IMG/VR virus record: IMGVR_UViG_3300035510_000237
Strand: one strand, 5' to 3'
Length of the DNA: 64,000 nucleotides
From: a virus
The notes beneath the pieces were generated by a model. The model had not been told where the DNA came from. It saw only the letters and a program-made list of their open reading frames with translations, and did no database searches. Of this stretch, positions 42,425-51,316 are shown piece after piece; within the stretch, counting starts at the first letter, position 1; each line of letters starts with the position of its first letter. Both the position numbers and the translations under genes were made by a program.

Positions 42425-43285
42425 ATGTTTTATGTTGGTGATTTTTATAACGACCTTCTTCCGGTAGAAGTAAAGCATTTTCCTGATGGTTCTCTTCATC
42501 TTAACGGCGACTTCTTTCCAGTGCGTCAGATTTATTGGCTGTATGAGAATGATGAGGAAATCTTCACTCTTATTTGTCTGAAACGTCATTTTGACCAGCT
42601 TAATGGTTCAATTCGTCTGATTCTGCCTTACCTGCCTCATGCTCGAATGGACAGGACTAAGACCAATAAGGACGTATTTACTCTTAAATATTTTGCGGAA
42701 GTAATTAATTCTCTTAATTTTGAGGCAGTAAAAGTTCTTGATGCCCATAGTAATGTAAGTCTTGCTCTTGTTAATAATATTGTAAACGTTGACCCTACGT
42801 TCTTTGTTGAGAAAGCTATTAATGATATTCTTTCTCATACTACAGTTGATAATCTTGTGCTTTTCTTCCCCGACGAAGGCGCAATGAAGCGCTATAGCGG
42901 TCTTTTTGCTCGTTCTTATACTTTTGGTATGAAGAAGCGCGATTGGGAAACTGGGGAGATTCTTGGGTTGGATATTGTTAATCCTGAAGCTGTTAAAGAA
43001 AAGGAAGTCCTTATTGTAGATGATATTTGTTCTTATGGTGGGACTTTTTATCGTGCAGATAAAGCACTGCGAGAGGCCGGTGCTTATAGAACCTATCTTT
43101 ATGTTTCTCACCTGGAGAACAGTGTAATCAATGGAAAGCTGTACCAAGAAAGAGCTACTGTTAATCATATTTATACAACAAATAGCATCTTTAATGAGGA
43201 TAATGATGTGGACCAGAAAGTTACCGTATTTCCGGTATTTTCTTGCGAAGAGCTTTATAAGAAGGGAGTCAGATATTACCAGTGA
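42425..43285 (+). CDS. prs: ribose-phosphate pyrophosphokinase (PRPP synthetase)-like
   Basis: PRPP-binding loop VLIVDDICSYGGT; N-terminal Prs-like fold. Confidence 0.55.
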   Translation: MFYVGDFYNDLLPVEVKHFPDGSLHLNGDFFPVRQIYWLYENDEEIFTLICLKRHFDQLNGSIRLILPYLPHARMDRTKTNKDVFTLKYFAEVINSLNFEAVKVLDAHSNVSLALVNNIVNVDPTFFVEKAINDILSHTTVDNLVLFFPDEGAMKRYSGLFARSYTFGMKKRDWETGEILGLDIVNPEAVKEKEVLIVDDICSYGGTFYRADKALREAGAYRTYLYVSHLENSVINGKLYQERATVNHIYTTNSIFNEDNDVDQKVTVFPVFSCEELYKKGVRYYQ

Positions 43286-43728
43286 ACATTGAAACTTTGA
43301 AAAAGGACAAGATTGCGGCGATGAAGGCTGGCGACATCCAGCGAAAGAACGTCCTTACTGATATGATTGATACTATTCAGAAAGCAGCGATTACTCCAAA
43401 AGGACGCATTGAGATTACTGAACAGCTAGTTGATGACACTTTGATTAAGTATCAGAAAACTGTTCAGGAAATGATTGATACTTGTCCTGCTGACCACCCA
43501 GACAAGCTTGCTGAGTATCAGCAGAATATGGAAATTGTTAAGGAATATGCTAAGCAGCTTATCACTGATAGAGAAGTTATTAAAACCCTTATTATGGAGC
43601 TTCTTGATGCAAATGGAATTACTTGTGAGAAGGCCAATAAGGGCAAGATTATGAAGGTCCTTGCGCCTGCCTTTAAGGGCAAGGCAGATATGAAGATCGT
43701 TAATAGCGTCCTAGAGGAATATTTCTAA
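43282..43728 (+). CDS. GatB/YqeY-domain protein
   Basis: MNIETLKKDKIAAMKAGDIQRKNVL.. YqeY-like pattern. Confidence 0.45.
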   Translation: MNIETLKKDKIAAMKAGDIQRKNVLTDMIDTIQKAAITPKGRIEITEQLVDDTLIKYQKTVQEMIDTCPADHPDKLAEYQQNMEIVKEYAKQLITDREVIKTLIMELLDANGITCEKANKGKIMKVLAPAFKGKADMKIVNSVLEEYF

Positions 43729-43732
43729 TAAA

Positions 43733-43790
43733 GCGCGCTCCCAATTTTTTAACTATTTATTAGCAGAATTTTGGGAGCGCGCATTTTCCC
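43733..43790 (+). terminator. rho-independent terminator
   Basis: AGCGCGCTCCCAATTTTTT...AATTTTGGGAGCGCGC. Confidence 0.65.
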
Positions 43791-43795
43791 TATAT

Positions 43796-43824
43796 TTGTG
43801 TTTATTAAAAAAATATATTATAAT
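43796..43824 (+). promoter_or_regulatory. class-2 promoter
   Basis: TTGTGTTTATTAAAAAAATATATTATAATATATATAGAAATTAAGAAAGGCTTGATAAACATG. Confidence 0.6.
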
Positions 43825-43855
43825 ATATATAGAAATTAAGAAAGGCTTGATAAAC

Positions 43856-44062
43856 ATGGCTTCACTAATATATCATCCTTGTTACCGATGTGCTTTAAAA
43901 TGTAAATGCTGTGCTTTTTATAAAAATTCTGAATCAGGGCTTTGCCCAAAGTATTGTGTGTATACAATGAAAGGATTTACATTGAGAAGCCATATAGTAT
44001 ATTGTCCTTTTTGCGGGAAAAGAATTAAAAAGGAGAATGGTGAAATTGAATATCAAGCCTAA
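43856..44062 (+). CDS. Cys-rich zinc-ribbon protein, paralog pair D
   Basis: CYRCALKCKCCAF..CPKYC..CPFCG. Confidence 0.45.
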   Translation: MASLIYHPCYRCALKCKCCAFYKNSESGLCPKYCVYTMKGFTLRSHIVYCPFCGKRIKKENGEIEYQA

Positions 44063-44243
44063 AACTGAATGTTTAGAATGTAAATTTCGATGTTGGTGCT
44101 GTGAATTTTATTCTGATACTTGCAATCGAGATAAAGGAGAATGCTCTTCTAATAATTTTAAACTAATAGAAGATTGGCACCATTGTCCTAATGATGGCAA
44201 AAGATTTGCCAATGTTCCTGTTTTTACCAAAGATTTTGAATAA
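44037..44243 (+). CDS. Cys-rich zinc-ribbon protein, paralog pair D'
   Basis: CLECKFRCWCCEF..C..HCPNDG. Confidence 0.45.
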   Translation: MVKLNIKPKTECLECKFRCWCCEFYSDTCNRDKGECSSNNFKLIEDWHHCPNDGKRFANVPVFTKDFE

Positions 44244-44255
44244 GGAGATTGTTTA

Positions 44256-46043
44256 ATGATTAATAATTATAACCCTCTCTTAATGTGTGATTTTTATAAG
44301 GCTACTCATGCGGAGCAGTATCCGGCAGGACTAACAAAAATTGTTAGTTATTATACTCCACGGCTGTCAAGACTTCCTGATACTAATAAGGTTACTCTTT
44401 TTGGCCTTCAGGCTTTTATTAAAGAGTATCTGATTGGGATGTTTAATGAATGCTTCTTTAACAGAAGCGAAGAATATGTTGTTCATGAGTACGAAAGAGT
44501 GCTGAACAATTCTCTTGGCCGTGGAACTTATTCTGCTGAAAAGATTATTAAGCTGCATCGACTTGGTTATCTGCCTCTTTCTATTAGAGCTGTTCCAGAA
44601 GGAACTAGAACTTCTATTGGCGTTCCGCAGATTGAGATTAGCAATACCCATCCTGATTTTGTTTGGTTGGTAAATGCTATCGAGACTCTTCTGTCTTGCA
44701 CCATGTGGCATACCCAGGTATCTGCGGAAGTCGGTTATCGCTATTGGCAGATTGTTAAAAGGTATTGGGATGCTAGTTGCGATGATTTTGTTGATCCCCA
44801 TATGCTGCTTGGAGACTTTTCTATGCGCGGTCAGCAGTCTGCGGAATCCGCAATTAAATCCAGCGCTGCTTGGTGCCTGAGTTTTTATAATACCGCGACC
44901 GTGCCAGCTATTATGTGGTTGGAAGATAATTATAATTGTGATTCTGGCAAGGATGAAGTTGCCCATGGCGCAGTTTCGACAGAGCATAGCGTTATGTGCT
45001 CTAACTATGCTGTTGATGGCGATGAAATTACTCATATTAAGCGGCTTCTTACTGAAATTTATCCTGAGATTAGTTTCTCTATGGTATCTGATTCTTATGA
45101 TTACTGGAATCTTGTAACCAAAATTCTTCCTAGATGTAAGAAGGAAATCATGGAGCATAAGGGTTGTCTTGCTATTCGTGGCGATAGTGGAGACCCTGTA
45201 GAAGTGATTGCAGGTAAGCGTTTTTATCCTATTGATGGCGCACTCCTTGAGGAGAACGATGAAGATAAAATCGGTGATTGGTTCAACGATTGGGCATTTG
45301 AATACGGCATTGAATATAGTGATATTTATTACTTCCAGGATGCTAATGGAAAAGTTTATTCCGCAGACGTGGATATAGATTATAGTTATGAGTGCGGTTA
45401 TTATACTGATACTGAATACCGGTATATTGATTCCCTTAGAGTGGAATGGAAAGAAATTTCTCCCACTGCTGAAATTATGGGCACTGTTTGGGCGCTGTGG
45501 CAGGAATTTGGCGGCACCCTTAATTCTAAAGGGTATAAGGTTCTAAATCCTCATGTAAAGGCTATTTATGGCGATTCTATTACCCCTCAGCGTTGTGAAG
45601 AGATTTATAAGCGTCTTATGATGCAGGGCTTCGCTATTAGTAATGTTTCTCTTGGCGTTGGTTCTTTCTCTATGATGTGCCTTGAAAATATTGATAGTGA
45701 AGGTAAGATTTCTTATAGTCCTTATACTCGCGATACTTTTGGCATTGCTGTAAAGGCTACTTATGCCGAGGATAAGGATGGTAAGCCCATTATGATTTAT
45801 AAGCAGCCCAAGGCTTTGTCTTGGAAGAAGTCTCAGAAAGGATGCTGCATCGTAGCAGAAGATGGCGAAAGCTATACTGATGAACATACTCTGGAAGAGA
45901 CTGCCAATCATAAGTGCAAAAACTTGCTTATCCCTGTTTTCGCTAATGGGCAGCTTATTAGGCAGTATACACTTGATGAAGTTCGTAGAAATATGTATCC
46001 TGAGACGACGGAAGATTGGTGCGATGAACGTTATTACTGGTAA
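44256..46043 (+). CDS. nadV: nicotinamide/nicotinate phosphoribosyltransferase (NAMPT/NadV family)
   Basis: N-terminal LLMCDFYKATHAEQYPAGLTKIVSYYTPR matches NAMPT N-terminus; 595 aa. Confidence 0.6.
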   Translation: MINNYNPLLMCDFYKATHAEQYPAGLTKIVSYYTPRLSRLPDTNKVTLFGLQAFIKEYLIGMFNECFFNRSEEYVVHEYERVLNNSLGRGTYSAEKIIKLHRLGYLPLSIRAVPEGTRTSIGVPQIEISNTHPDFVWLVNAIETLLSCTMWHTQVSAEVGYRYWQIVKRYWDASCDDFVDPHMLLGDFSMRGQQSAESAIKSSAAWCLSFYNTATVPAIMWLEDNYNCDSGKDEVAHGAVSTEHSVMCSNYAVDGDEITHIKRLLTEIYPEISFSMVSDSYDYWNLVTKILPRCKKEIMEHKGCLAIRGDSGDPVEVIAGKRFYPIDGALLEENDEDKIGDWFNDWAFEYGIEYSDIYYFQDANGKVYSADVDIDYSYECGYYTDTEYRYIDSLRVEWKEISPTAEIMGTVWALWQEFGGTLNSKGYKVLNPHVKAIYGDSITPQRCEEIYKRLMMQGFAISNVSLGVGSFSMMCLENIDSEGKISYSPYTRDTFGIAVKATYAEDKDGKPIMIYKQPKALSWKKSQKGCCIVAEDGESYTDEHTLEETANHKCKNLLIPVFANGQLIRQYTLDEVRRNMYPETTEDWCDERYYW

Positions 46044-46482
46044 TTTGCTTGACGCAAAAGAAACTTATATTTGCCATCAGGTGAATTGTCAAGGCAAGAT
46101 GAACTCTGGCGTAGCAAAAGCTATCCGAGAAAAATACCCAGAAGTATTCAGCAGTTATCTTTTTAAATGTTCAGAGGCCGAATCCGCAGATAAGCTTTTA
46201 GGTTCTACCCAAATGGTAAAGACTAAAGATAATCATTTCGTAATTAATATGTTTTCTCAGTTTAACTATGGATATGATGGGCGACGTTATACTTCATATG
46301 ATGCTTTTTGGAATGCCTTGAATTTAATTAAAAACTCAGTAAGCGAAAACTCTACCATAGCTTTTCCCTTTGGGATTGGCTGTGGTAGAGGTGGCGCAAA
46401 TTGGAATATTATTTACGCCATGATTAAAGAAGTTTTTAATGACTCTGATAATATAGTGTTTTATAAAATGGAGGAGAAATAA
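46024..46482 (+). CDS. macro-domain (ADP-ribose-binding/processing) protein
   Basis: ICHQVNCQGKMNSGVAKAIREKYP; start overlaps nadV end in another frame. Confidence 0.5.
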   Translation: MNVITGNLLDAKETYICHQVNCQGKMNSGVAKAIREKYPEVFSSYLFKCSEAESADKLLGSTQMVKTKDNHFVINMFSQFNYGYDGRRYTSYDAFWNALNLIKNSVSENSTIAFPFGIGCGRGGANWNIIYAMIKEVFNDSDNIVFYKMEEK

Positions 46483-47276
46483 TGCCAGAAAAGAAAACTG
46501 CTTATTTTAAATATCCTCTTAATCCTAAAGAGGAAATTGAAAAAATTGTTGATTGGATTAAGAGATATTTTTATATAAATGCGACTCAAGAGACTTATGC
46601 AATTGTTGGGATTTCCGGAGGAAAAGATAGCACAATCACTGCGGCTTTGCTGGCTCGTGCCCTTGGGCCAGAGCGAGTCATTGGCGTTATGATGCCTTGC
46701 CATTATCAGGCAGACTTACAAGACGCAGAGTCGGTTTGCGAGTATCTCGGTATTCAGAAAATGACTATTGATATTGGCCCAGCTACTACTGCGCTTTATA
46801 AGTCTCTTGAAGCTTCTAAGAGCATGGCTTTTAGTGATGAAAATGTCCAGAGAATTACTACAAATACTCCTGCTCGTATTCGCATGACAACTCTTTATGC
46901 AGTAGCTGCTGCGGTTGGAGGTAGGGTAGCGAATACCTGTAATTATTCTGAAGATTATCTGGGATATTCTACAAAATTTGGTGATACTGCTGGAGATTTT
47001 TCTCTTCTTAGCCATTTTACTGCGACAGAAGTAAAGCAGCTTGGATATGCTTTGGGACTACCTAAACGCTTTGTTGATAAGGCTCCTACAGATGGGATGT
47101 GCGGCAAGACCGATGAAGAGAACTTTGGCTTTACTTATACTGAATTAGATAATTTCCTTCGGAATGAAATCTATCCTGATTATGACTCTTATCGTGATAT
47201 AATGGATAGGCATACCCGCAATCGTCACAAAATAGAAGATATGCCAGCTTATTTTTATAGTCCGCGTTATTCGTAA
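46482..47276 (+). CDS. nadE: NH3-dependent NAD+ synthetase
   Basis: PP-loop GISGGKDST; 264 aa. Confidence 0.7.
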   Translation: MPEKKTAYFKYPLNPKEEIEKIVDWIKRYFYINATQETYAIVGISGGKDSTITAALLARALGPERVIGVMMPCHYQADLQDAESVCEYLGIQKMTIDIGPATTALYKSLEASKSMAFSDENVQRITTNTPARIRMTTLYAVAAAVGGRVANTCNYSEDYLGYSTKFGDTAGDFSLLSHFTATEVKQLGYALGLPKRFVDKAPTDGMCGKTDEENFGFTYTELDNFLRNEIYPDYDSYRDIMDRHTRNRHKIEDMPAYFYSPRYS

Positions 47277-47299
47277 TTTATAAAGTAATACTGACAATA

Positions 47300-47330
47300 G
47301 CTCCCTTAAATGGGAGCTATTTGTTTTTAT
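47300..47330 (+). terminator. rho-independent terminator
   Basis: AGCTCCCttaaaTGGGAGCT + ATTTGTTTTT. Confidence 0.7.
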
Positions 47331-47349
47331 TAAAAAATTATGTTATAAT
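47321..47349 (+). promoter_or_regulatory. class-2 promoter
   Basis: TTGTTTTTATTAAAAAATTATGTTATAATATATATAGAAAGTTAAGGAAAGGAAATGATATATATG. Confidence 0.6.
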
Positions 47350-47383
47350 ATATATAGAAAGTTAAGGAAAGGAAATGATATAT

Positions 47384-47740
47384 ATGAATGGTTGGGTTAC
47401 TTCTTTAAATCCGCAGAAGCATCAAAGAAAAATGAATTATTATATGCGTTCTATGAATAAAAATATTGAGAAAGACGAACTTTGGAATGGGCGCTTTTAT
47501 TGTCGCCAGGTTTATTCTCCGCAGAAGTATGTTTATGAAGATCGTAGCGGCATGGAGTATCATGTTTGTTTGCGCTTTATTGATAAGAAAACAGGTAAGT
47601 ATTATGATAAATATGATACAGTTAATTCCTGGTGTATGTGGAATGGCAGTAAGATTTGGGAAACTATGAACTGGTTTATCGTTGAGTTTATTGACGCATG
47701 GGCCGAAAAGCCCAATCCTTATGAGGAGGTCTGGCATTAA
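47384..47740 (+). CDS. hypothetical protein
   Basis: 118 aa. Confidence 0.5.
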   Translation: MNGWVTSLNPQKHQRKMNYYMRSMNKNIEKDELWNGRFYCRQVYSPQKYVYEDRSGMEYHVCLRFIDKKTGKYYDKYDTVNSWCMWNGSKIWETMNWFIVEFIDAWAEKPNPYEEVWH

Positions 47741-48150
47741 TGAATGATTTGAATATGCTGAAAATTGATTTTGCGCCCTGGACTTATCCTTCCAATTGGG
47801 TAAATAATATTAAAGACATTTTCCGCCATATTAAATGGAGTTGGCAGAGAATCACTAAAGGCTATAGTGAAAGAGACCTTTTTGATTTGGATTATTATTA
47901 TGCCAATCTTTTTAGTGGCACTCTAAAGGATTTTGCAAAAGAGCTTCATAGCTATCCTGGCCCAGAAATCAGTTATGATGAATGGCGTGATGCTCTCTGC
48001 GATACTGCTGATAAGTTTGAAAAGTGTCATAATTATGATTTCTTTACTACTACAACAAATAATTATGAAGAAATCTATGAGCAGTGCAAGAAATATAAAG
48101 ATGAAGGCTTTGACTTCTTGAAGAAATGGTTTTTCCATCTTTGGGACTAA
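47740..48150 (+). CDS. hypothetical protein
   Basis: ATGA overlap with upstream gene. Confidence 0.5.
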   Translation: MNDLNMLKIDFAPWTYPSNWVNNIKDIFRHIKWSWQRITKGYSERDLFDLDYYYANLFSGTLKDFAKELHSYPGPEISYDEWRDALCDTADKFEKCHNYDFFTTTTNNYEEIYEQCKKYKDEGFDFLKKWFFHLWD

Positions 48151-48161
48151 GGAGGTAAATA

Positions 48162-48848
48162 ATGGCTACTTATTGTTGTTCTGACTTACATGGGCAGCTT
48201 TTTCTTTATAAAGCGATAAAAGAATTTATTAAGCCAGAAGATACAGTTTTCTTCCTTGGGGACGCAGGAGATAGAGGCCGCAATTCATGGGAAACTATTA
48301 AAGCTATTTGGAGCGATGAGCAGTTTAAGTATCTTCGCGGCAATCATGAAGATATGCTTGTGAAGGCCATGGAAGAATATTATCAAGGGCATCCATATGG
48401 CAGTGCTTATGAACTTCTAGCTTGGAATGGTGGAGCGCCCACTTATGAAGATTGGTTAGCTGAAAAAACTGCTGACCAACGATTTTGGTATAACCGTTTA
48501 AAATCCTTGCTAACTCAATGGACTTATGTCAATGCATTCGGTATGAAATGTGAACTATCTCATGCGGGTTTTACTCCTGGCGCGCATGAGAAAGATTTAA
48601 TTTGGGATAGAAAACATTTTAGACACCCTTGGCCAGAAGGTTATAATGATACTCTTATTGTTCATGGTCATACTCCTTGTCAGTTAATGGATGAAGAACT
48701 GCTGGTCGGTGAACAAGATGATGAAAGAGAAATTGGAGCTTATTGGTATTGCGACTTTCATAAGGTTGACCTTGACAACGCTTCTTTCTATACAAACGCT
48801 TGTGTGCTTTTAGATTTGGACACTTTTGACGAACATATATTTCAGTAA
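48162..48848 (+). CDS. Ser/Thr-phosphatase-like metallophosphoesterase (PPP family)
   Basis: SDLHG, GDAGDRG, GNHE motifs. Confidence 0.6.
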   Translation: MATYCCSDLHGQLFLYKAIKEFIKPEDTVFFLGDAGDRGRNSWETIKAIWSDEQFKYLRGNHEDMLVKAMEEYYQGHPYGSAYELLAWNGGAPTYEDWLAEKTADQRFWYNRLKSLLTQWTYVNAFGMKCELSHAGFTPGAHEKDLIWDRKHFRHPWPEGYNDTLIVHGHTPCQLMDEELLVGEQDDEREIGAYWYCDFHKVDLDNASFYTNACVLLDLDTFDEHIFQ

Positions 48849-48877
48849 TTGATTTTTACTTTAAATTATGATATAAT
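48849..48877 (+). promoter_or_regulatory. class-2 promoter
   Basis: TTGATTTTTACTTTAAATTATGATATAATATTATTATAAA. Confidence 0.6.
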
Positions 48878-48906
48878 ATTATTATAAAAGAAAGGGGAAG
48901 ATCAAC

Positions 48907-49176
48907 ATGAGAAGTAAGAGAAATAAGAACATGGAAACCCATGATTTCTATTGTTTAAATTGCGGAAAGTCTATTCCGCTTCCTAGAAAGCAGGGTTTCC
49001 AGCCGGCTAGATTTCATAGAAAGAAACTTTATTGTCCTTACTGCCAGGTTGTAATTAATATGGTTGAGTGCAAGACTTATGCCGATATTGTAGAATTTAA
49101 GGAAAATTTTGCTAATGGTTTGTATAAGGAAGAAGCTGCTGAATCGCTGAGTTTTGTTGAGGGTTCTGTTATCTAA
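48907..49176 (+). CDS. zinc-ribbon protein
   Basis: CLNCG ... CPYCQ. Confidence 0.45.
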   Translation: MRSKRNKNMETHDFYCLNCGKSIPLPRKQGFQPARFHRKKLYCPYCQVVINMVECKTYADIVEFKENFANGLYKEEAAESLSFVEGSVI

Positions 49177-49189
49177 GGAGGTAATTAGA

Positions 49190-49699
49190 ATGATTAACTT
49201 GTATTTGTTAGTCGGTTTGCCGGGAAGTGGAAAAAGCACTTGGGCAAAATGTTTTACTTCTAAAAATGATGCTATTTGGATTTCGCGAGACGTATGTCGT
49301 TATAAGCTTTTATCTGCTGGAGATGAATACTTTAGCAAAGAGGAGCTTGTTTGGGAAGATTTTATTGGCTGCATTCAAGATGCTATCATTAAGGGCCGGC
49401 AAAATCCAAAAGAAACCACTAATATCATTGTTGATGCTACTCACTTAAATAAAAAATCTCGTGATAAGGTATTGAATCGTATTCCTTTAAACGGGGTTGA
49501 TTTAATCGCAGTTAATTTTATGACTCCTATTGAGCAGTGTCTAAAAAACAATGCTAAACGAGAGGGCCGAGCTAGAGTACCAAATAACGTTATTTATAAT
49601 ATGTATGATAGATTGGCATTTGTTAAAAACCATGAGGAATATAAAAAACATCCTTATTGGGAAATTCAAAATGAATATTGGTTAGATGGAAAGGAGTGA
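49190..49699 (+). CDS. pnk: polynucleotide 5'-kinase-like P-loop kinase
   Basis: Walker A LLVGLPGSGKSTWAKCF resembles T4 Pnk kinase domain; RBS AAGGAGG. Confidence 0.55.
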   Translation: MINLYLLVGLPGSGKSTWAKCFTSKNDAIWISRDVCRYKLLSAGDEYFSKEELVWEDFIGCIQDAIIKGRQNPKETTNIIVDATHLNKKSRDKVLNRIPLNGVDLIAVNFMTPIEQCLKNNAKREGRARVPNNVIYNMYDRLAFVKNHEEYKKHPYWEIQNEYWLDGKE

Positions 49700-49703
49700 T
49701 GTT

Positions 49704-49760
49704 ATGGCCATTTGGCTAACCTCAGATTGGCATTTTAATAAAAGTGCTGGTCAAGAATAA
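49704..49760 (+). pseudogene. 18-codon duplicate of the 5' end of the downstream phosphoesterase gene
   Basis: MAIWLTSDWHFN.. vs MAIWFTSDWH at 50752; lies between pnk stop and HEG. Confidence 0.5.
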
Positions 49761-49811
49761 TACAACGAATTGATATAATTTTTATATTTTATTGAGAGGA
49801 GGAATATAGAA

Positions 49812-50747
49812 ATGTATTCTGTATATAAAATTACTAACTTAATAAATAATAAATGTTATATTGGTTCAAGTATTAGGGTTGATAAACGATGGAAGGAACA
49901 TCTTAACTGCTCTAAAAATTCAAATGACCCAAAATATGATTATCCTTTATATTGTGCTTTTCGGAAATATGGAATAGAAAATTTTCATTTTGAAATATTA
50001 AGAGATGATTTTGATTCTGTGGAAGAGATGTAGAGCTATGAAAAAGAAATGATTATATTTTTTGATAGCTATAATAATGGGTATAATTAGACTTATAATA
50101 CTGATACGCCTTCTTTAGGGTCAGAAAATCTTCAAAAATATATTTAGCAAATCAGCCAAAAATGTGCAAAAGTTAAAAATGGTAAAATTATTGAAGTTTA
50201 TAATTCTTACCATGAAGCTGCAAGAAAAAATGGTTATGATGGCGATTTTTGGGCTTCCTCAATTAGAAAAGTCTGCAAAGGCCAATAGCGAAATTTTAAT
50301 GGAGATATTTTTCAAGATTTAGATAAAAACAATAATCTTGTTATTCCAAAATACTTAACTTCTTCAAGGCGTCAAAAAATTTTTTGTGTAAATGTTGAGA
50401 CTTTAGAAGAAAAATATTATGATTCAGTTTCTCAAGCCAGTAGAGAATTAAATATAGATAGAAATAGAATATAGCAATGCTCTTCTGGAAATTAGAGATA
50501 TTCAATTGTTCATAATTATATTTTTAGAAAGATTGATGAAGATGGTAATATTATTGAAATAGAAAATGCACCAACCATTGAAGAAAAAATTTTTTAGTAC
50601 AATGAATCTAATCCATTAATTAATGGGGAAAGGCATAGTATTAAAGAATGGTGTAATATATATAATATAACCACTAACAGTTATTACTAGAGAAGAAAAA
50701 AAGGAATGGGAGTAATTGAAGCAATTATTACCCCTAAAAGGAGGTGA
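49812..50747 (+). CDS. GIY-YIG homing endonuclease with NUMOD1 repeats (9 in-frame TAG)
   Basis: YSVYKITNLINNKCYIGSS..RWKEH; two ..Y.S..EAAR/QASREL NUMOD1-like helices; closes at TGA 50745-50747 only with TAG read-through. Confidence 0.55.
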
Positions 50748-51316
50748 TTTTATGGCAATCTGGTTTACTTCAGATTGGCACTGACCATTTTAACCATGAT
50801 AAAGAATTTATTTGGAAAGCGCGTGGTTTTACTAGCGCCCAAGAAATGAATGATATAATTATTAAACATCATAATGATGTTGTTTCTGACGATGATGATG
50901 TTTATGTTTTAGGTGATTTGTGCTTGGGCGATCTTGAAACTGGAAGAGAGTGCATTTCTCAGATGCATGGCAAGCTTCATGTTGTATTAGGTAACCACGA
51001 TACAGCTCGACGCATTGAGATGTATCAATCACTTCCTAATGTAGTTGAAATGGCATATGCGCTTCCTGTTAAATTTGGAAAATATAATTTCATTGCAACG
51101 CATTATCCCATGCTAACAGGAAATTTAGAAAAAGAATCTTTAAAACAAATGGTTCTTAATTTACATGGTCATACCCATTCAATCAATAAATTTTATAATG
51201 AACTTCCTTATTGCTATCATGTGGGAGTAGATGCTCATGATTGCAAGCCTATACAAATAGAAAATATTTTAGAAGATATGAAAAACAAAGTAAATGATTG
51301 TAAACAATATCTTTGA
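50744..51316 (+). CDS. metallophosphoesterase whose N-terminus is disrupted (7-bp CTGACCA indel after the ATG at 50752)
   Basis: ATG 50752 gives MAIWFTSDWH then TGA; GTG 50744 frame gives intact GNHD/GHTH phosphoesterase motifs. Confidence 0.45.
   Translation: MILWQSGLLQIGTDHFNHDKEFIWKARGFTSAQEMNDIIIKHHNDVVSDDDDVYVLGDLCLGDLETGRECISQMHGKLHVVLGNHDTARRIEMYQSLPNVVEMAYALPVKFGKYNFIATHYPMLTGNLEKESLKQMVLNLHGHTHSINKFYNELPYCYHVGVDAHDCKPIQIENILEDMKNKVNDCKQYL

Follow-up and report, generated by a model that had tools for sequence, protein, structure and literature searches.

The 64,000 nt stretch of viral DNA studied here (IMG/VR virus record IMGVR_UViG_3300035510_000237, referred to below as the window) contains a free-standing homing endonuclease gene (HEG) of the GIY-YIG type within the first 12 codons of a gene for a calcineurin-like phosphoesterase. 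All features of the locus lie on the plus strand. To the left is a P-loop kinase gene of the AAA_33 type (49190..49699; Pfam AAA_33, E = 3e-17), a conserved neighbour that also precedes the phosphoesterase gene in related loci (L029, L030, L111, L114, L118, L121, L122 and L126) and at a site lacking the HEG (L119). It is followed by the native 5' remnant of the phosphoesterase gene, an ATG and 12 codons (MAIWLTSDWHFN; 49704..49739) with a ribosome-binding site (RBS) directly upstream. The frame opened by the ATG at 49704, preceded by the RBS GGAAAGGAG, continues into foreign DNA as far as a stop at 49758-49760, and thereby forms an 18 codon open reading frame (ORF) reading MAIWLTSDWHFNKSAGQE*. 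The foreign DNA, which we term the cassette, has at its left end (49740..49811) a motif of around 20 nt, AAAAGTGCTGGTCAAGAATAA, and the RBS of the HEG, GAGAGGAGG; the HEG itself, with GIY-YIG and NUMOD domains, occupies 49812..50747 and has 311 codons. Beyond it the cassette carries a second start for the phosphoesterase, here called the mini-ORF (50752..50781), preceded by AAAAGGAGGTGA and composed of an ATG and nine codons (MAIWFTSDWH) that include metal-binding motif I (DxH). The mini-ORF runs directly into a TGA at 50782-50784, the first of seven extra bases (50782..50788) that are completed by a C at 50785 and a CAT at 50786-50788. The remaining 175 codons of the phosphoesterase gene (FNHDKEF...; 50789..51316, with a TGA at 51314-51316) are in the +1 frame relative to the ATG at 50752, and encode the motifs GD, GNHD and GHTH. 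The last codons of the HEG, AAA AGG AGG TGA (KRR*; 50736-50747), are also the RBS of the mini-ORF, as they are in most of the cassettes examined, implying translational coupling of the HEG and its target gene.

The seven bases separating the final His codon of the mini-ORF from the TTT at 50789 may be written either as CTGACCA or as CACTGAC, and their structure is that of a His codon, a stop, a C and a second His codon (CAC TGA C CAT). They are counted as extra because they are absent from 17 homologues without a HEG, all of which read TSDxH[FL]xH[DN] with no interruption, and from the empty-site allele L119. When they are deleted in silico, the sequence reads MAIWFTSDWHFNHDKEFIW... followed by 175 further codons, and it is solely in a protein restored in this way that the motifs of the calcineurin-like phosphoesterases (DxH, GD, GNH[DE], H and GHxH) fall on one chain; as the DNA stands, SDWH is in the mini-ORF, whilst GD, GNHD and HGHTH are in the downstream frame. 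The match of the restored protein to Pfam PF12850 (Metallophos_2) begins at residue 1, and a sequence search found no relative of the phosphoesterase in the PDB. Several claims of the initial annotation of this DNA are thus upheld: the 18 codon ORF with its own RBS is present upstream of the HEG (49704-49760), it does duplicate the start of the phosphoesterase gene, its first 12 codons deriving from the 5' end of the recipient gene itself, and the ATG at 50752 does meet a TGA through an additional CTGACCA, comparison with the 17 homologues and L119 revealing the gene in its uninterrupted state.

The same annotation had suggested that the gene may now start at the GTG at 50744, as gene callers also annotate it, which would give a working enzyme of 190 aa (VILWQSGLLQIGTDHFNHD...). 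There is indeed an uninterrupted ORF of 190 codons from this position (JGI call P0001); however, the GTG is situated inside the GGAGGTGA RBS and has no such site of its own, and the product exchanges SDWH for GTDH and loses the beta-1 strand and the spacing of the DxH motif (D-H, rather than D-W-H). Furthermore, this frame is closed in relatives with 6 nt inserts, whereas the frame of the ATG is conserved as [ST]DxH across cassettes. We regard initiation at the GTG as very improbable.

Translation of 49812-50747 encounters eight internal stops in 311 codons, every one of them TAG, before a terminal TGA; hence the 73 aa ORF that had been annotated as the HEG is in reality a fragment of a much longer gene. 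With TAG read as Gln, the product matches PF01541 (E = 6e-7, above the cut-off) and PF22083 (I-HmuI_NUMOD-like, E = 2e-7), and over 500 homologues of 304-322 aa in the databases align to it from end to end. Gln93, which is invariant in this family, corresponds to a TAG codon in the window. The presence in the phage of a suppressor tRNA with the anticodon CUA, predicted by ARAGORN outside the cassette (25272..25346, plus strand), explains how a HEG so rich in TAG can be a live gene. This tRNA shares 42 of 75 columns with the phage tRNA-Gln and shows no clear descent from it; the identity of the amino acid is instead taken from the protein alignment, and most likely the phage reassigns TAG to Gln. 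At 50250-50252 the HEG has a TGG (Trp) codon where the related locus L001 has TAG (1027-1029), a single-base change in a cassette otherwise 97% identical.

The cassette, extending from 49740 to approximately 50818 (about 1.06 kb), is a mobile element. Between the window and L001 it is 93-99% identical, whilst in the flanks the kinase gene is only 45-67% identical and the phosphoesterase gene downstream 57-92% identical; the right edge can be placed between around 50800 and 50818, since identity to L001 drops from 98% to 57-87% after about 50818. The native remnants of the two loci are different, MAIWLTSDWHFN in the window and MIFVTSDWHFN in L001, but are joined to the cassette by the same left junction (AAAAGTGCTGG...). 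The remnant is therefore the recipient's own 5' end, with the cassette bringing the replacement start. One and the same HEG protein (P0176) is found in backgrounds with phosphoesterases that are only 85% identical. The unoccupied state of the site is represented by L119, in which the kinase gene is directly followed by an intact gene encoding 184 aa, with the sequence ...TCCGATTGGCACTTCTGGCACGATAAAG... at the empty site. The flanks of L119 are 99% identical to those of the filled loci L020 and L021, and its phosphoesterase gene is 99% identical to that of L020 downstream of the cassette; L020 matches L119 from around AAAGAATTTATC onward, so that the donor tract ends no more than about 12-30 nt from the insert. 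The kinase gene is the left homology region for homing, and these comparisons support the origin of the remnant as a homing-associated duplication, severed by the entry of the cassette.

Two further explanations for the arrangement, that the HEG resides in a self-splicing intron or that the seven bases are an assembly error, can be considered at this point, and together they seem the remotest of those that we have weighed. The first, raised in the initial annotation as a spliced element, draws on the fact that HEGs are often borne by introns, and some homologues in the databases carry the label 'group I intron endonuclease'. However, there is no Rfam match at E<=1 over 49500-51000, the flanks outside the HEG amount to only around 70 nt and 40 nt, too little for a ribozyme core, and no in-frame junction leaves the terminal G required by group I introns. 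Against the second stands the occurrence of the identical seven-base junction in four other loci (L001, L020, L021 and L022) from four separate JGI samples. The ORF made by this junction is also present on three JGI contigs and in Logan assemblies (P0001, P0242 and P0241), such that the junction of the window type is known from at least five assemblies and three diverged phage backgrounds; a pattern scan for the exact 7 nt junction returned only one IMG/VR contig, that holding L001.

Around 20 cassettes are found at the same spot in related loci, with HEGs that are only 47-68% identical to that of the window. The scar of homing recognised in the initial annotation is consequently real as regards the duplication, but not as regards its supposed freshness: the cassette design is old and widespread. 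Its common layout consists of an RBS, a start codon, approximately 10-17 codons ending in [ST]DxH (sometimes with one or two more residues), and then an insert of 4-8 nt containing a stop. The 6 nt inserts, which are in frame, are CAC TGA CAT (L030), CAC TAA CAA (L039), CTT TAG CTT (L029), CTT TAA CTG (L037), CTT TAA CTA (L118) and TCT TAG TCT (L041 and L126), each shown here with the codon that precedes it. Those of 7 nt are CAC TGA C CAT (the window), CAT TAG C CAC (L042), CAT TAG C CAT (L043 and L111) and CAT TAG G CAC (L113); those of 4 nt are TGT TAG C CAY (L034, L036 and L040) and GGT TAG C CAY (L114, L121, L122 and L130); and a single case of 8 nt is CAT TAGAAAAT TTT (L033). In all 13 types a frame-0 stop lies immediately 3' of the last conserved codon, and in nine of the ten types of 6-7 nt this stop has synonymous codons on both sides; a match of this kind has a chance of around 1/32 to 6/64 per type, although the types are not fully independent. 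Both the HEG and the insert are missing from all 17 of the uninterrupted homologues, whilst every HEG-linked locus bears an insert, with the exception of L035. The insert does not merely shift the frame of the gene, as had been assumed; in every case it contributes an in-frame stop, which matched codons usually surround, and this arrangement is suggestive of translational bypassing.

A ribosomal hop over the insert would restore the invariant HxxH spacing in every class, even though insert lengths are not all multiples of three, whereas a frameshift or readthrough would lengthen it by one or two residues. The latter processes nevertheless form an alternative in which the gene is recoded without any hop. 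In the window, ribosomes would shift to the +1 frame at CAC UGA C and the product would read ...SDWH-DH-FNHD..., longer by two residues (junction FTSDWHDHFNHDK), whilst the 6 nt class would be expressed through readthrough or suppression of the stop and the 4 nt class through a +1 shift. The 4 nt and 7 nt inserts are all net +1, and a C follows the stop in most insert types; a stop followed by C is a weak termination context, as at the CUU UGA C frameshift site of Escherichia coli prfB. Readthrough could be expected for any in-frame TAG in TAG-recoded phages, where it would be read as Gln. Yet in the +1 frame a tRNA-His leaving CAC would meet ACU, with which it cannot pair, the stop in the in-frame 6 nt inserts of TAG-recoded phages is TGA or TAA and not TAG (L030, L039 and L118), and three mechanisms would be needed to cover the 4 nt and 7 nt, the 6 nt and the 8 nt classes. 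The matched flanking codons are irrelevant to frameshifting and readthrough but are the defining feature of hops, and recoding of this kind would lengthen the HxxH motif, the spacing of which is kept in every uninterrupted homologue. It appears unlikely that recoding without a hop accounts for these loci.

We infer instead that ribosomes hop over the insert. The cassette severs the start of the host gene and supplies in its place an RBS within the HEG end, an ATG and ten codons ending in SDWH. In the mechanism that we propose for the window, ribosomes would initiate at the ATG at 50752 and stall with peptidyl-tRNA-His on the CAC at 50779-50781, the last codon of the mini-ORF and the proposed take-off codon, with UGA in the A site. 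The peptidyl-tRNA would then un-pair and re-pair with the matching CAU at 50786, the proposed landing codon 7 nt downstream, and decoding would restart at the UUU at 50789, so producing the wild-type MAIWFTSDWH-FNHDKEF... sequence. The insert would disrupt the target inside a motif that is intolerant of amino acid change, and it probably does so at the recognition or cleavage site of the HEG, which, by analogy with T4, would make HEG-bearing genomes immune. Taken as a whole, we think it reasonably probable from the layout of these loci that this is a mobile HEG cassette in which the insert protects the element's own target and translation bypasses the insert, as in the mobA/gene 60 system of phage T4.

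The main competitor to bypassing is that the phosphoesterase is simply knocked out by the cassette with its insert, the HEG spreading selfishly by efficient homing despite the cost. The downstream ORFs would then be intact through recent invasion, the gene being dispensable or partly covered by another metallophosphoesterase encoded at 48162-48848, a paralogous Metallophos gene 2 kb upstream. The extreme mobility of the cassette, with near-identical copies in diverged backgrounds, and the end of conversion tracts no more than some 12-30 nt from the insert, which makes the downstream sequence that of the recipient, are both as such a knock-out would predict. Most MobA insertions likewise look recent, and that element may be mildly parasitic (Manning and Atkins; bioRxiv 10.1101/2022.08.31.505936). 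What inactivation leaves unexplained is that every insert type brings an in-frame stop at once, that synonymous codons surround the stop in so many of the 6-7 nt types, and that there are stop-bearing inserts of 6 nt that are in frame.

Selection on the mini-ORF is also difficult to reconcile with a knock-out. The start codon, situated after the stop of the HEG, and [ST]DxH are intact in all 23 tabulated HEG-linked mini-ORFs (two near-duplicate pairs included), each of which has an RBS upstream, as read by eye, with the C terminus of the HEG typically PKRR*. Their Ser codons turn over synonymously (TCA, AGT, AGC, TCT and TCC), and the mini-ORF stretch of the window is identical in three phage backgrounds. 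Remnants of equal shortness, by contrast, have decayed through indels, truncations or loss of the start in 8 of 18 lineages, even though they are renewed at each homing; a hypergeometric estimate for the difference, based on around 22 distinct lineages, is p of about 6e-4. The HEG-linked downstream ORFs are complete in all 19 cases examined (170-252 codons), and the ratio of non-synonymous to synonymous substitution rates (dN/dS) for these ORFs between HEG-bearing lineages is 0.1-0.4, a value to which we give little weight, since the genes that the cassette enters are intact.

Two loci, L132 (5337-5880) and L133 (IMG/VR 3300045988_171548 and 3300013426_000017, respectively), have the insert GGT TAG C CAC but no HEG within 5 kb. 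Downstream of the insert they differ by 52 synonymous and 6 non-synonymous codon changes, a dN/dS of 0.02, and in the mini-ORF dN is far below dS with no indels, which is not what would be expected of an inactivated gene. In a third locus, L131 (3300045988_158685), the insert is the same but the phosphoesterase is more distantly related (IADTHFG*HENAIKFDGRPF), and again there is no HEG nearby. All three may be 'immunised' alleles, or sites at which a HEG came and was lost. With these alleles and the intact mini-ORFs set against it, the selfish knock-out appears unlikely, albeit less so than the other alternatives.

Several observations count against bypassing, and have to be set beside those in its favour. 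The intactness of the downstream ORFs may reflect no more than recent invasion of intact genes, and the 42 nt around the insert are identical between L132 and L133, an identity that may come from recent gene conversion rather than shared descent. L035 has the HEG but lacks the insert. In the 4 nt, 8 nt and L039 types the landing site matches at only two of three positions, so that re-pairing would be imperfect (GGU or UGU with AGC, CAU with AAU, and CAC with CAA, respectively). TAG is the insert stop in the TAG-recoded L036, L040, L111 and L121, where it may be read as Gln late in infection. Stimulators of the gene 60 type were sought at these sites: the gap, which is too short to hold one, contains no Shine-Dalgarno-like sequence, and there is no homologous nascent-peptide signal. 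The efficiency to be expected is low, unstimulated short hops in E. coli being around 1% efficient. RNA folds at six take-off sites gave z scores of +0.7 to -2.6 relative to shuffled sequences, and as these values are weak and inconsistent, RNA structure is not used as evidence here. An inverted repeat in the window, AATCTGG...TCAGATT (50756-50776, covering the I-W and S-D codons), could form a hairpin immediately upstream of the take-off codon (z of about -2); similar mini-ORF hairpins are seen in L030, L034 and L043, as well as in certain alleles without a HEG (L018).

The closest parallel to the proposed bypass is the T4 mobA/gene 60 system. In both, a HEG has inserted in a conserved enzyme gene, with a short non-coding insert beside the target that begins with a stop right after the take-off codon, and the take-off and landing codons match. 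Copies in which the endonuclease has been lost and the bypass kept also exist in the T4 system, and the alleles with an insert but no HEG may be their counterparts here. However, MobA is an HNH-type enzyme and its target a topoisomerase, rather than the GIY-YIG/NUMOD enzyme and metallophosphoesterase found here, and the T4 cassette has no sequence homology to the one in the window. The T4 coding gap is 47-50 nt (a 50 nt bypass), whereas the gaps here are 3-5 nt (4-8 extra nt), and the Shine-Dalgarno sequence within the gap, take-off hairpin and nascent-peptide signal of the T4 system have no homologous features that we could find at these loci. In T4 the gene is split into two proteins, whilst here the cassette re-supplies the first ten or so codons. 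The T4 insert has been reported to block nicking by MobA, and a survey in 2022 concluded that the gene 60 cassette 'remains unique' (bioRxiv 10.1101/2022.08.31.505936).

Synthetic 'stop-hops', in which matched codons surround a stop, work in E. coli, although a review of recoding in 2016 stated that natural in-frame stop-hops were not known (PMC5009743). The 6 nt class described here has the same grammar (for instance CTT TAG CTT, CTT TAA CTA, TCT TAG TCT and CAC TGA CAT), and the CAC TGA C CAT of the window is this grammar with one base added in the gap. The synthetic examples are engineered reporters, whilst the present cases, which occur in nature, are conserved and travel with a mobile element, are putative stop-hops. 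Other free-standing HEGs beside or inside conserved genes, such as the T-even seg genes and mobE in the nrdA gene of phage Aeh1, resemble the cassette in homing with co-conversion of the flanks, in being polymorphic for presence or absence between related phages, and in the rescue, putative here, of the function of the target without an intron or intein. The split nrdA halves of Aeh1 reassemble as two proteins with added tails; here one of the pieces would be only 10 aa, and the design, unlike that of Aeh1 nrdA, suggests that bypassing yields a single polypeptide. The 'byp' elements of Magnusiomyces mitochondria are 27-55 nt long. They are similar in being numerous short mobile inserts in coding sequences that are tolerated by bypassing between take-off and landing pairs, 81 instances of such translational correction being cited in a review. 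They differ in being mitochondrial, longer and GC-rich, and in having no association with a homing endonuclease.

On balance we are inclined to believe that gut phages routinely use natural stop-hops of 4-8 nt, with a stop in the A site and matched take-off and landing codons, as an evolvable device allowing a GIY-YIG cassette to disrupt its own target within a catalytic motif whilst leaving the protein unchanged. If this is so, the cassettes would, by the same slightly favourable judgement, form an independent and more diverse counterpart of T4 gene 60/mobA, for many years regarded as the only case of its kind, and the CAC UGA C CAU of the window would be one of their number. The approximately 20 diverged relatives would then be the first natural short stop-hops, and efficient programmed bypassing, for which there is essentially one well-studied bacterial example in T4 gene 60, may be common. 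The strategy of joining a HEG to an insert that ribosomes can bypass, placed within the target of the HEG, would seem to have had more than one origin. The cassettes also amount to a natural experiment, with at least 13 insert variants that include take-off at His, Leu, Ser, Gly and Cys codons, each of the three stops and gaps of 3-5 nt, and which together probe the minimal requirements of hopping. Gene callers truncate or mis-start all of these phosphoesterases (131-198 aa, most of them truncated), and split the TAG-recoded HEGs into fragments.

The non-coding motif of around 20 nt at the left end of the cassette (49740-49760 in the window) has a consensus of about AAAATGTAGGTCAAAAGTAA, and is found in L029, L030, L034, L037, L041, L111, L118, L121 and L126. 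Its conservation exceeds that of the HEG coding sequence in a set of cassettes whose HEGs are around 50% identical, and it may represent an operator or other regulatory site, or a relic of an ancestral gene end. In L036, L040 and L113 the HEG follows a different upstream gene, or comes directly after the kinase gene, and a 5' remnant is lacking; such an intergenic position of the HEG may be the ancestral one. One related cassette, L128, is from a pig-gut metagenome.

Useful relatives of the locus came from IMG/VR and from exact-protein look-ups. Amongst GenBank phages, a megablast search with the region gave no match and a tblastn search with the HEG only distant domain-level matches, the identity of the HEG to GenBank phage proteins being no more than about 30% over 74% of its length, or 47% over the GIY-YIG domain alone; scans of metagenomes and genomes with the HEG found distant GIY-YIG domains only. 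The window hence belongs to a phage clade with no cultured or annotated representative amongst the GenBank phages searched.

Within the window, in-frame TAG codons are limited to HEGs (two HNH and three GIY-YIG), PhoH, an endolysin and a holin-like gene, all of them otherwise intact, whilst most other genes are free of TAG. Apart from the HEG described above, the TAG-bearing genes lie at 20321-21055, 26897-27517, 27673-28005, 28127-29026, 34203-34844, 53669-54934, 54996-56099, 56103-56459 and 57327-58085. Stop codon recoding has been proposed as a mark of late and lysis genes, and the distribution of TAG in the window fits this idea. At least four more of the TAG-rich genes are putative HEGs, judged from motifs found by eye: those at 20321-21055 and 26897-27517 are HNH-like, those at 34203-34844 and 57327-58085 are of the GIY-YIG type, and that at 28127-29026 is a further candidate. 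Two of these additional putative HEGs are within or beside the tRNA cluster.

The kinase gene is the last of a block (40705-49699) that also encodes an RNA ligase, a phosphoribosyltransferase-like protein, a NAMPT-like protein, an NAD synthase, a Macro-domain protein and the second metallophosphoesterase. This gene context suggests a module for RNA repair and NAD regeneration, with a role in counter-defence, in which the kinase may have the disrupted phosphoesterase as its partner in end healing. Judged from the same context, expression of the phosphoesterase may bear on the ability of the phage to counter host defences. Promoter-like sites were no commoner than in shuffled sequence, and a terminator was not found. 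The tRNA cluster, at 21371-27752, comprises 14 tRNA genes, including two for tRNA-Ala(UGC), one for tRNA-Ile(UAU) and a 90 nt call labelled 'tRNA-Ala(AGC)', the unusual length of which might hide an insertion.

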